A stretch of DNA of 9,313 nt from a virus (Duplodnaviria > Heunggongvirae > Uroviricota > Caudoviricetes), in the IMG/VR virus record IMGVR_UViG_2698536657_000018, positions 1 to 9,313 of that record. One strand, 5' to 3'. This document shows, one piece after another, positions 3,001-6,000 of the stretch (its first letter is position 1; every line of letters begins with the position of its first letter). A program made the position numbers.

Positions 3001-6000
3001 TGGGTTATACGGGAATGATGCAAATATTCTCCAAGATTCATTGTTCACCTCATGTTATGTGACCATGAATATTAATAGCATTGTTATTTTTAAAAGTAAA
3101 TAGCATCGCTATTTCAAAGAGATTAATAATCTTATTAGAATTGAAGGTATGAAAAGAAAACCCCTGTCAGAGATCGACCTGCAAGCCGCCCAGAGACTGA
3201 AAGAAATCTGGACGACGAAAAAAACTCAACTTGGGTTAACCCAAGAGCGTGCGGCAGAAATTCTGGGTTTTTCGACACAAGGGGCAGTAAGCCATTATCT
3301 AAATGGTCAGACACCTTTAAATCTAGAGGCTGTTATCAAGTTCGCTGGGTTGCTACAAGTTCCGCCTGAGTCAATTAGACCAGATATGGCAGACTTGTTA
3401 CGAATTGTAAGGATGTACCCCCAAGAACTGCAGCAGGATAATGTTGTCGCTTTACCCGCAGAGATGGAACAATCGGAAAACGAACTTCCGTTTAATATAG
3501 AACCTATAGAGCGAGATTTGATCCAGACGTTCAGGGCTTTCCCAAAAGAAGACAAAGAGAAAATGCTTAAGGAAATGAAGGAGAAAAAAGAATCAATTGA
3601 AGAAACCGTTGCGCGGTGGCTAGAGGCGCAAAAAGGTCGTCGCGCCTAATCTGAGGAGGTTAGAACATGAGTACAGTCCTTTCCCCGATAATTTCAGAAT
3701 TTGAAACAATCGAACAAGAAAACAGCTATAACGAATGGTTACGCACCAAAGTGGCAGCAAGCCTCGCAGACCCCCGTCCTGCAATTCCGCATGACGAAGT
3801 AATGGCTGAAATGGAAAACCTTATTGCGCAAATAGCTTCGACGAACAGGAGTGAGTAATGCTGCCCATTTTATGGCTACCTTCTGCGCGTGATGATTTGC
3901 GTCAGATCGTAGCCTATATTGCCAAGGAAAACCCTCCCGCTGCACGTAGACTAAAAATACGCATTGAAACATCAGTTTTGTCACTTACTGAACACCCTTA
4001 CCTGTATCCACCAAGCGAAAGAGCTCTAGGCCTTCGTGAGATAGTGACCCATCCTAACTACATAATACTTTACCGAGTAACAGCATCTAACATCGAGATC
4101 GTAAATGTAGTTCACTCACGAAGGCAGTATCCAAACAAAAGCTGTTAATCATTCCTACCAACAACCACCTTCGGGTGGTTTTTTTTCTTACCTCCAAAAA
4201 ACAATAGCATTACTATTTACAGAATAAAATAGCAGTGCTATTGTTTATTCATCACCCACCCTCCCCACAGAACGCAGGGCAATACTTCGAGTTACCAGGC
4301 AGTGGTCAGGGGGTAAGTAGCCAGCCCGAGGCGTAAGAACATGACGGCAGGGTTCAACTTTAATAACTATGCAGCAGGTTTTTGTTCCGCTACCCCGGCG
4401 TTAAGGGGAAATGAGGTCAACATGGATACTATCGATCTTGGCAACAGCGAATCTCTGGTATGTGGAGTATTCCCCAACCTGGACGGCACGTTTACCGCGA
4501 TGACGTATACCAAAAGTAAAAAGTTTAAAACCGAAGCTGGCGCGCGTCGCTGGTTAGCCAGAAACACTAACTGATTAGCACCAGTAAAAACAGGTTGCCA
4601 CTGGTTAATTTACCCTGAAAAGTCAGGGTATAACACGAAAGCGCACGGCGAAGCTCTTTCCCTTAGAAGGCTTGTCGTTAGATTTCTTCGAACGTGCGCT
4701 TCCGGTTGTGGCAATCCGCGAAATGGCGCGGCGGTAAGTATGGCTGGGGTTTCCTCCATTGCTCCAGAAAATGCACCGGGTTGTCAGGTTGACCATACGA
4801 TTAAGTGACAGCCCCGCCACAATACCCATGTGTAGTCTTTGGTGGCATCAGTTCTACTCCGTGACTGCTCTGCCACCCTTTTTAAAGTGAATTTTGTGAT
4901 GCGGTGAATGCGGCTAAGCGCACGCGGAACAGTTAAAACCGTAAAGTGGTCGTTTACGGGGCGTAACGGGCATACTTCTGTATTCCGGCGTTAATTGTTA
5001 ACTGGTTAACGTCACCTGGAGGCACCAGGCACCACATCACAAAATTCATTGTTGAGGACGCGATAATGGAAACGTTATTACCAAACGTTAATACGTCTGA
5101 AGGGTGTTTTGATATTGGTGTTCTGCTCAGTAACCGGGAGTTTACTGAAGATGCCATTAAGATGAGAAAATATGAGCCTTATCTTCTCAATGATAATTCC
5201 ATACTCTCCAGAATTGCCCTTCTTAAACTTGGTATTTTCGGAGGGCAGCAGTGACTTCTGCATTTGCACTGGTGATGACGGTTTTTCTTATAACGGGTGA
5301 GCCACAGAATGTGATTACCGGAATTTATGCCAGTAAAGAATCATGCCTCCGTGCAAGAGACGAGCAAAAAATTTCTGGCGAATGCCTCCCGTTAAAAAAA
5401 GTATCGCTGTACCTGAATAACGAAATACCGGCTGGATAACCCGCCAGCCATATTAACGCCATACCAACGGATTAAAAATGCCAGCAATGGCAGGGATTCG
5501 TTCACCCTGAAATCTGTAATGAGGTTAAAACAAAATGAGTAAAGTCTTTATTTGCGCCGCTATTCCTGACGAACTGGCAACAAGGGAAGAAGGCGCTGTG
5601 GCTGTAGCCACAGCCATTGAAGCTGGCGACGAACGCCGTGCTCGAGCAAAATTTCACTGGCAATTCCTGGAACATTATCCGGCTGCTCAGGACTGCGCTT
5701 ATAAATTTATTGTCTGCGAGGATAAACCCGGCATACCCCGCCCTGCCCTCGATTCCTGGGATACCGAATATATGCAGGAAAATCGCTGGGATGAGGAGTC
5801 AGCTTCCTTTGTACCGGTCGAACCTGAATCCGATCCGATGAACGTCAATTTTGACAAGCTGTCCCCTGAAGTACAGAACGCAGTCCTGGTTAAATTCGAC
5901 ACATGCGAAAACATCACCGTTGATATGGTGATTAGCGCACAGGAATTACTACAGGAAGACATGGCAACATTCGGCGGACATATCGTTGAAGCGTTTATGA

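Follow-up and report, generated by a model that had tools for sequence, protein, structure and literature searches.

Which protein keeps a lambdoid prophage silent when the place of the lambda repressor is held by the first gene of a toxin-antitoxin operon, and what is the toxin-antitoxin pair doing there? The question is raised by IMG/VR virus record IMGVR_UViG_2698536657_000018 (Caudoviricetes), of which positions 1 to 9,313, a stretch of 9,313 nucleotides hereafter called the window, carry an operon for a 166-residue regulator, an antitoxin of the PaaA family and a toxin of the ParE family. Our answer is that this region is very probably the immunity region, that is, the lysis/lysogeny switch, of a lambdoid Escherichia coli prophage of the Qin/CP-933 type, with the 166-residue protein as its repressor and paaA-parE as addiction cargo. 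As a heteroimmune member, the locus falls within the known PaaR-PaaA-ParE architecture of lambdoid immunity, whose central idea, a toxin-antitoxin pair in the cI/rex place, is already published for the archetype, prophage CP-933P. What is new here is a chimeric repressor, the co-variation of operators with the N-terminal domain of that repressor, and a toxin-antitoxin pair that lies nearer to a second copy in strain O157:H7.

A preliminary description of this DNA had placed three plus-strand genes within 3149-4148, and open reading frames (ORFs) occupy exactly these positions (Table 1). The gap between the regulator and antitoxin genes is 17 nt, with GAGGAGG ahead of the antitoxin gene, and the antitoxin stop and toxin start overlap in TAATG. 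A sequence scan found no terminator between the regulator, antitoxin and toxin genes; the sole non-coding terminator-like hairpin of the operon stretch begins 15 nt past the parE stop and is kept in related loci, as seen in the alignment. With one promoter-like site upstream and one terminator downstream, the three genes are predicted to form a single operon. The overall order, from a promoter resembling that of repressor maintenance (PRM) through repressor, two cargo genes and terminator to the left operator and promoter (OL/PL) and the early-left genes, is the lambda order cI-rexA-rexB-OL/PL, and the operon thus does sit in the cI-rexAB place, as had been proposed. The proposal that it belongs to the PaaR2-PaaA2-ParE2 type is borne out by family matches in Pfam and the PDB together with a match to the C terminus of PaaR2.

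By its domain matches, the 166-residue regulator is a cI-N-terminal-domain::PaaR-C-terminal-domain chimera. It comprises a cI-type DNA-binding domain (residues ~1-90), a disordered linker (~93-112) and a helical C-terminal domain (~119-166). The DNA-binding part matches the Pfam helix-turn-helix (HTH) family HTH_3 (E 1.8e-9) and aligns by phmmer with structures of the lambda cI N-terminal domain (1LMB/1RIO, E ~1.6e-9), including the basic N-terminal arm. An AlphaFold model (mean predicted local distance difference test score, pLDDT, 76) shows five helices at the N terminus and, after the disordered linker, a C-terminal domain of helix-turn-long-helix form; searched with Foldseek, its best PDB matches are all lambda cI N-terminal domains, with template modelling (TM) scores of 0.81-0.94, root-mean-square deviations of 1.1-1.5 Å and 34-37% identity. 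The same domain is 54% identical to that of the S24-bearing cI of Stx2-converting phages.

The C-terminal end has another origin. Residues 123-166 align with residues 80-123 of PaaR2 (BLASTP, 50% identity over 44 residues, E 1e-14), and BLASTP gave no significant regulator-PaaR2 alignment outside this C-terminal domain; for the comparison, the true PaaR2 (123 residues, beginning MQKKE) was recovered from the O157:H7 genome, and its N terminus agrees with the protein sequencing in PMC8630535. The regulator had been called PaaR2-like, which is right for its last 44 residues and wrong for the protein as a whole: it is not a full-length homologue, and its N-terminal domain is of the lambda cI type. 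That it would be an XRE-type HTH protein without LexA/S24 motifs is upheld by the HTH_3 match, by the absence of a Peptidase_S24 match (Pfam, E<=0.01) and by the model; the protein has only 166 residues, and its modelled C terminus is not an S24/LexA autocleavage domain. No PaaR2 structure was detectable in the PDB by sequence and Foldseek matched the N-terminal domain only, so that the helix-turn-long-helix fold of the C-terminal domain is a predicted one.

The C-terminal motif ...LLQTFxAFPxEDxEKMLKEMKxKKESxExxVARWLxAQKGRRA is common to the window repressor and four other repressor alleles, namely PaaR2 (123 residues), a 133-residue protein from the second O157:H7 locus, and proteins of 135 and 153 residues, whose N-terminal HTH domains are unrelated. 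All of the N-terminal domain alleles that share this C-terminal domain, at least five, sit upstream of paaA-parE. Larger relatives of 244-255 residues (loci L015-L018, genes at 4001-4768; proteins P0013-P0023) join tandem cI-like and DicA-like HTH domains to the same C-terminal domain; they hold the same position and carry the same operators, lack the toxin-antitoxin pair and have a Rha/ASH-type gene and kilR downstream instead. In locus L002 (3977-5288), a PaaR2-like 123-residue regulator and a 153-residue one, whose N-terminal domain is DicA-like and whose tail is extended, stand in tandem, in this order, before a ParE2-type pair. Orthology to DicA itself was considered and rejected, the score to NCBIfam PRK09706 being 28.7 bits against a cutoff of 101 and confined to the C-terminal domain; the match to the C-terminal domain of K-12 DicA is likewise weak (25% identity over 51 residues, E 1e-4).

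What would such a repressor bind? The inverted repeat ATAGC-N3-GCTAT occurs four times in the window at <=1 mismatch, against 0.14 expected, and none of 200 shuffled sequences reached four. The AATAGC-N3-GCTATT sites that the preliminary description had named are thus present, four in number, and they form two pairs. An OR-like (right operator) pair lies inside the 107-bp intergenic region between repressor and cro-like genes, an OL-like pair just past the operon terminator, and a 40-nt repeat is common to both regions. The PR-like (rightward) and PL-like (leftward) promoters are mirror images, each with its -10 element inside an operator, 3075-3087 in the case of PR, and the -35 element of the PRM-like promoter adjoins the operator 3100-3112. 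The PRM-like promoter is fully conserved in related loci, and the OR sites are conserved in the alignment. The -10 of PRM, TAGAAT, stops 7 nt short of the repressor ATG, and the GAAGG upstream is too close for Shine-Dalgarno spacing; because of this geometry the repressor mRNA made from PRM is probably leaderless. CP-933P has the same geometry (GATAAT, 6 nt, ATG). The PRM-proximal operator has its centre at 3106, ~43 bp ahead of the start codon of the repressor; lambda cI activates PRM from OR2, which is placed near -42 of that promoter. A perfect 6-2-6 palindrome, TAATAATCTTATTA (TAATAA-TC-TTATTA, 3124-3137), lies over the PRM -10, and ~24.5 bp separate its centre from the proximal operator; all loci with the window repressor have kept it, and it could act as a weak OR3 or as a site preferred by Cro.

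Across related loci, the operators co-vary with the N-terminal domain of the repressor. In every locus whose repressor is 90-100% identical to that of the window (L001, L009-L014), the sites stand at -74/-49 from the ATG and again past the toxin gene; these loci differ in replication modules and flanks. The 244-255-residue two-HTH relatives that have no toxin-antitoxin pair carry the same motif at -74/-49 from an internal MKRK methionine, and the Stx2-phage cI, which has a similar recognition helix, has AATAGTCTAGCTATT in its own OR region. ATAGC-N3-GCTAT sites are absent from the loci with other N-terminal domain alleles (L002, L004 and L008, the last being CP-933P). This distribution suggests that the N-terminal domain of the repressor is what reads the ATAGC-N3-GCTAT operators.

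Table 1. Genes and regulatory elements of the window, with their positions
Feature	Position	Strand	Details
Regulator/repressor ORF	3149-3649	+	166 aa
PaaA-family antitoxin ORF	3667-3858	+	63 aa
ParE-family toxin ORF	3858-4148	+	96 aa
Predicted intrinsic terminator closing the repressor-antitoxin-toxin operon	4163-4180	+	7-bp stem (4 GC pairs), then T-run
OR-like operator pair	3075-3087, 3100-3112	.	ATAGCATTGTTAT and ATAGCATCGCTAT; centres 25 bp apart
OL-like operator pair	4204-4216, 4229-4241	+	25 bp apart; overlaps PL-like promoter
PRM-like promoter	3113-3141	+	TTCAAA-17-TAGAAT; promoter scan
PR-like promoter	3072-3100	-	TTTACT-17-(TGc)TATTAA; read directly from sequence
PL-like promoter	4216-4244	+	TTTACA-17-(TGc)TATTGT
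cro-like HTH gene, YdaS position	2778-3041	-	87 aa
ydaT, gene for CII-analogue activator	2356-2781	-	141 aa
YdaT operator OM	2771-2788	.	TTGATTTTCATGAATCAA; perfect TTGATT-N6-AATCAA; PRE-like region
Longest P-type replication ORF and DnaT-domain (O-like) replication gene	796-1458 and 1250-2293	-	
DicF small RNA, complete	4827-4878	+	Rfam RF00039, 61.1 bits vs gathering score 48
dicB	5066-5254		
DUF1482/ydfD-like gene	5251-5439		
823-aa 'exonuclease' gene	5535-8006	+	C-terminal Rv2179c-like 3'-5' exoribonuclease domain, E 2.5e-67

The assignment of the two cargo genes rests on several family models. The antitoxin matches Pfam PF21217 PaaA2 (E 2.9e-22, 78.8 bits against a cutoff of 27), the NCBIfam equivalog NF050103 above its cutoff (E 1.6e-26) and the PaaA2 structure 3ZBE (E 1.7e-22); the Pfam scan found no other domain in its 63 residues, hence no DNA-binding domain. 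The toxin, which had been described beforehand as kin of ParE/RelE, does show that similarity: it matches Pfam PF05016 ParE_toxin (E 4e-18, 66 bits against a cutoff of 23), and its residues 1-93 match the O157:H7 ParE2 structures 5CW7/5CZE (E 5.7e-35). The designation PaaA2-ParE2-like holds at the level of the families; as to the closest relative it has to be amended, since global identity to PaaA2-ParE2 is 63.5% for the antitoxin and 64.1% for the toxin, and identity to the second O157:H7 copy is 85.7% (PaaA) and 86.3% (ParE).

Both genes are under clear purifying selection, because their ratios of nonsynonymous to synonymous substitution (dN/dS) against four diverged homologues are far below 1 (paaA 0.04-0.21, parE 0.035-0.10), with synonymous sites near saturation. 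When positions 3800-3858 and 3858-4000 of the window were compared with loci L008, L002, L004 and L020, the C-terminal tail of the antitoxin (MAEMENLIAQIA... as against ERRMAERFAKMRKERS...) and the N-terminal helices of the toxin fell into the same two classes across loci. The co-variation of the two classes suggests that they may correspond to separate, non-cross-reacting neutralisation specificities.

The system that had been expected to resemble this one, a known locus of which the operon would probably be a variant, is indeed already characterised. In 2021, Jurenas et al. (PMC8630535) reported that CP-933P has functional counterparts of CI, Cro and CII in PaaR2, YdaS and YdaT, respectively. 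Both PaaR2 and YdaS give footprints on the OR/intergenic region and repress PR, PRM and PL, the last of which, together with OL, is located beyond parE2 (PL933P). The paaR2 mRNA is leaderless, PaaR2 octamerises and has no peptidase motif, and CP-933P is unresponsive to mitomycin C. YdaT serves as the activator of a PRE-like promoter, and the locus behaves bistably; ClpAP and ClpXP degrade PaaA2, and the region stabilises an unstable plasmid (PMC8630535). More recently, Prolic-Kalinsek et al. (2023, PMC9986795) described paaA2-parE2 as replacing rexA/rexB and PaaR2 as replacing CI in CP-933P, a defective (cryptic) prophage of O157:H7, and defined the high-affinity YdaT site TTGATT-N6-AATCAA by footprinting and isothermal titration calorimetry. 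The original description (Hallez et al. 2010), as related in the introduction of PMC8630535, had made PaaR2 the third component of a toxin-antitoxin system. The preliminary description called the role as immunity repressor untested here; for PaaR2 itself that role has been tested experimentally (PMC8630535).

In the window and in CP-933P (Sp12), replication genes, ydaT, cro-like gene, operators, regulator, antitoxin, toxin, terminator and OL/PL follow in the same order and orientation, and OL/PL then leads to dicB, the exonuclease gene, xis and int. The YdaT operator is identical, neither regulator has an S24 domain, and the -10 lies 6-7 nt ahead of the regulator ATG in each. The two differ in the N-terminal domain of the regulator, which in the window is unrelated to that of PaaR2 (a protein reported to be without sequence similarity to CI, PMC8630535), and in the length of the regulator, 166 against 123 residues. 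They also differ in the operators, two ATAGC-N3-GCTAT pairs in the window and four GTTTAGTAA-type inverted repeats in CP-933P, and in the sequence class of the antitoxin C-terminal tail and the toxin N-terminal helices.

Aligned with CP-933P, homology stops at 2792 (ydaT/cro), resumes at 3578 inside the repressor C-terminal domain, continues through parts of the toxin-antitoxin genes, ends at 4128 and resumes at 4254. The allele-specific segments are consequently the cro-like gene, OR and the repressor N-terminal domain (2793-3577) and OL/PL (4129-4253), and judged from the alignment this mosaic is the pattern expected of a heteroimmune allele.

The cro-like protein matches Pfam HTH_3 (E 4.9e-6) and PHROG 35, a transcriptional repressor family (E 4.3e-16), and is 31% identical to YdaS of CP-933P, which places its gene in the allele-specific part of the region. 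YdaT, 89.4% identical to its CP-933P counterpart, matches Pfam YdaT_toxin (E 7.1e-10) and PHROG 163, a CII-like activator (E 2.1e-46), and the ydaT start overlaps the cro-like stop by 4 nt (ATGA). The single YdaT site with 0 mismatches in the window is centred on this overlap, as in CP-933P. The Pfam names would make ydaS-ydaT itself a toxin-antitoxin pair, a reading that we rejected on published evidence (PMC8630535). Beyond the cro-like gene and ydaT sit the DnaT-domain (O-like) and P-type replication genes.

The nearest toxin-antitoxin pair is that of the second O157:H7 locus (L020, strain ATCC 35150), which has the same architecture, is flanked by ydaT, ydfA, dicB and the exonuclease gene, and encodes a regulator whose C-terminal domain is 67% identical to that of the window. 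That regulator differs in having 133 residues and a DicA-like N-terminal HTH unlike the one in the window, and ATAGC-N3-GCTAT operators were not found in the loci of the related R135 allele. L020 is probably the CP-933M homologue mentioned in PMC8630535, that is, paaR1-paaA1-parE1.

With lambda, the window shares a repressor N-terminal domain that is homologous both by sequence (E 1.6e-9) and by fold (TM up to 0.94), divergent repressor and cro genes across shared operators, a second operator cluster over PL past the terminator, cargo predicted to be transcribed with the repressor, a promoter-proximal operator centred near -43 of PRM and a repressor mRNA that is probably leaderless. Unlike lambda, it has a repressor without an S24/LexA-type C-terminal domain, two clear operators per cluster where lambda has three, a CII analogue of the YdaT kind, a POU-type tetramer, and toxin-antitoxin cargo in place of RexAB. 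The Qin DicA/DicC region has the same downstream genes, ydfA (DUF1391), DicF, dicB and a ydfD-like gene, and an HTH with a short helical C-terminal domain; it differs in the N-terminal domain and in having no toxin-antitoxin pair between dicA and ydfA.

Taken by analogy with these systems, the switch would work as follows. The cI-type N-terminal domain would bind the ATAGC-N3-GCTAT operators, and the PaaR2-type helical C-terminal domain, in place of the S24 domain, would probably provide the oligomerisation for cooperative binding and for looping between OR and OL. Repressor at the OR pair would shut PR and thereby keep the cro-like gene, ydaT and the replication genes off, and repressor at the OL pair would shut PL and thereby keep ydfA, dicF, dicB, the exonuclease gene, xis and int off. 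From the promoter-proximal OR site it could also stimulate PRM, as cI does at OR2. The cro-like protein would be the counter-repressor, and YdaT, bound at the cro/ydaT palindrome, would be a CII-like activator of an alternative repressor transcript. Since the repressor has no S24 domain, induction cannot take the route of RecA-stimulated self-cleavage. Some relatives carry a Rha/ASH-type gene downstream, and the window does not.

As for the cargo, paaA and parE would ride on the repressor transcript in the rexAB position of lambda. ParE would be the stable partner, which poisons DNA topology and sets off the SOS response, and PaaA its labile antidote without DNA binding. On loss or recombinational replacement of the immunity region or the prophage, the cell would then be killed or arrested, which would make paaA-parE an addiction or stabilisation module. 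By the same analogy, addiction that stabilises the immunity region or the prophage is the cargo role that appears best supported.

Several points weigh against this account. Its functional evidence comes entirely from the CP-933P homologue; bistability of the switch, ParE toxicity, addiction and DNA binding by the repressor are all carried over by analogy from that homologue, and oligomeric state and cooperativity are extrapolated across only 44 residues held in common with the characterised PaaR2. The target of ParE2 was still unknown according to PMC8630535, in which ParE2 colocalises with the nucleoid and induces SOS, and the Pfam ParE family includes some members of the mRNA-cleaving (mRNase) type. 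Neither transcriptional state of CP-933P gave any sign of ParE2 activity (PMC8630535). At the level of the DNA, the PR-like promoter is weak by consensus and falls below the threshold of the automatic scan (the last base of its -10 is A), and the GAAGG just upstream of the repressor ATG might be a poor ribosome-binding site, contrary to a leaderless start. There are just two clear operators per cluster, against three in lambda and four inverted repeats in CP-933P, and the palindrome over the PRM -10 is no more than a candidate third OR operator, as it misfits ATAGC-N3-GCTAT. Besides, the window holds no LexA box or antirepressor gene that could explain induction.

If the 166-residue protein were merely the dedicated regulator of the toxin-antitoxin pair, the DNA-binding domain of a 'split antitoxin' rather than an immunity repressor, the lack of a DNA-binding domain in PaaA would find a ready explanation, since another protein must then regulate the operon, and the first description of PaaR2 as a third toxin-antitoxin component, known to us through PMC8630535, would fit as well. 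A regulator of that kind has little reason to find its operators repeated beyond the operon, over the promoter for dicF, dicB, the exonuclease gene, xis and int, or covering the -10 of the divergent cro/ydaT promoter. Its N-terminal domain is homologous to that of genuine cI repressors, relatives with the same N-terminal domain and operators hold the same position without any toxin-antitoxin pair, and a CI-like role has been shown experimentally for PaaR2 (PMC8630535), all of which makes a purely dedicated regulator highly improbable. That the locus is a decaying, functionless remnant of a cryptic prophage we consider scarcely credible, although the archetype host CP-933P is defective (PMC9986795) and, of 50,697 phage genomes on deposit, a single one has a ParE homologue. 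Every ORF is intact, dN/dS stays well under 1 despite near-saturated synonymous sites, and promoters, operators and terminator are conserved across loci with different flanks; moreover, the E. coli genome that matches at 100% has a seemingly complete prophage around the region, and the one deposited phage, Evi, carries the canonical PaaR2-PaaA2-ParE2 trio.

The remaining alternative concerns the cargo and not the switch. PaaA-ParE might act mainly in rex-like exclusion or abortive infection, in which an infecting phage depletes the labile antitoxin or stops host transcription, and ParE, thus freed, arrests the cell to the benefit of the lysogen population. The pair fills exactly the place of rexAB, with the repressor on one side and the terminator that precedes OL/PL on the other (PMC9986795), and stands in the predicted transcript of the lysogenic promoter; the slot holds defence cargo in relatives, such as a BsuBI-type restriction-modification pair in an Stx2 phage, and passages in the literature report phage-defence roles for toxin-antitoxin systems generally. 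Set against this, none of the three operon proteins matches any of the 5027 PADLOC models (E<=0.01), we found no report of PaaA-ParE phage defence in the literature, and the only phenotype tested for the homologue is plasmid stabilisation (PMC8630535), so that exclusion as the main role is unlikely; it is also compatible with addiction, and both could hold. In the restriction-modification locus just mentioned (L022, phage Lyz12581Vzw, 2495-5267), a cI with S24 and an N-terminal domain 54% identical to that of the window repressor is directly followed by a DNA methyltransferase and a BsuBI-type restriction endonuclease.

Returning to the immunity region with addiction cargo, its allele family admits a more speculative idea, which we put forward as tentative and rather doubtful: the PaaR-type C-terminal domain and paaA-parE would form a conserved core around which N-terminal domains, cro genes and operators are swapped, with the pair policing recombination or acting in a rex-like manner. 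If true, the diversification of lambdoid immunity types in E. coli would have a selectable driver in a ParE toxin. Apart from this idea, the locus extends a little-known arrangement, a toxin-antitoxin pair wired into a lysis/lysogeny switch, from one defective prophage to what looks like a family of heteroimmune alleles. A chimeric repressor with a clear operator motif offers a natural test case for a cI-type DNA-binding domain joined to a non-S24 oligomerisation domain, for the induction of such prophages, and for stabilisation versus phage exclusion by the toxin-antitoxin pair. The allele is common in E. coli, and current understanding is not overturned.

As to this distribution, positions 2300-4350 of the window, with ydaT, the cro-like gene, the repressor allele and the toxin-antitoxin pair, are covered to >=80% in 72 of 5,426 complete E. 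coli genomes. One of them, JNEC-KY176, matches this segment at 100%, in a seemingly complete lambdoid prophage that adjoins potC and carries terminase, lysis genes, integrase and excisionase. Some 5,000 blocks of a metagenome/genome index list a 90%-identical repressor, and window-type toxin-antitoxin pairs occur in 588 genomes; RefSeq annotations are generic ('helix-turn-helix protein', 'RelB antitoxin', 'RelE/ParE toxin'). Searched with the toxin, the 50,697 deposited phage genomes contained the window allele in no case, the one ParE homologue being that of phage Evi, with its canonical PaaR2-PaaA2-ParE2 trio.

The PL-like promoter reads into ydfA (DUF1391), the DicF small RNA, dicB, the ydfD-like gene, the exonuclease gene, xis and int. 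DicF precedes dicB, an order also present in the K-12 prophage Qin. Because the DicF/dicB cell-division-inhibition cassette is downstream of this promoter, the repressor presumably controls the cassette as well. The 823-residue exonuclease has a long acidic low-complexity middle, and its homologues in related loci carry YdfE_N and YdfE_C. On the other side of the switch, the longest P-type ORF shares ~200 nt with the end of the O-like gene that encodes the DnaT domain; since RefSeq gives a shorter P protein of 153 residues in the matching genome, the real start of the P-type gene is probably internal to the longest ORF.

Among complete E. coli genomes there is no end-to-end match to the window, the best reaching 99% coverage at 89.5% identity or 81% at 96.7%. 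Compared with L001 (22277-23089), ~0.8 kb is missing between ydfA and dicF (window 4575-4632), a segment that in L001 holds a 148-residue minus-strand hypothetical gene, and the right end of the window, with a DUF4224 excisionase and the integrase, comes from another module than in the closest complete genome. The missing 0.8 kb and the different right-end module make the window a mosaic.

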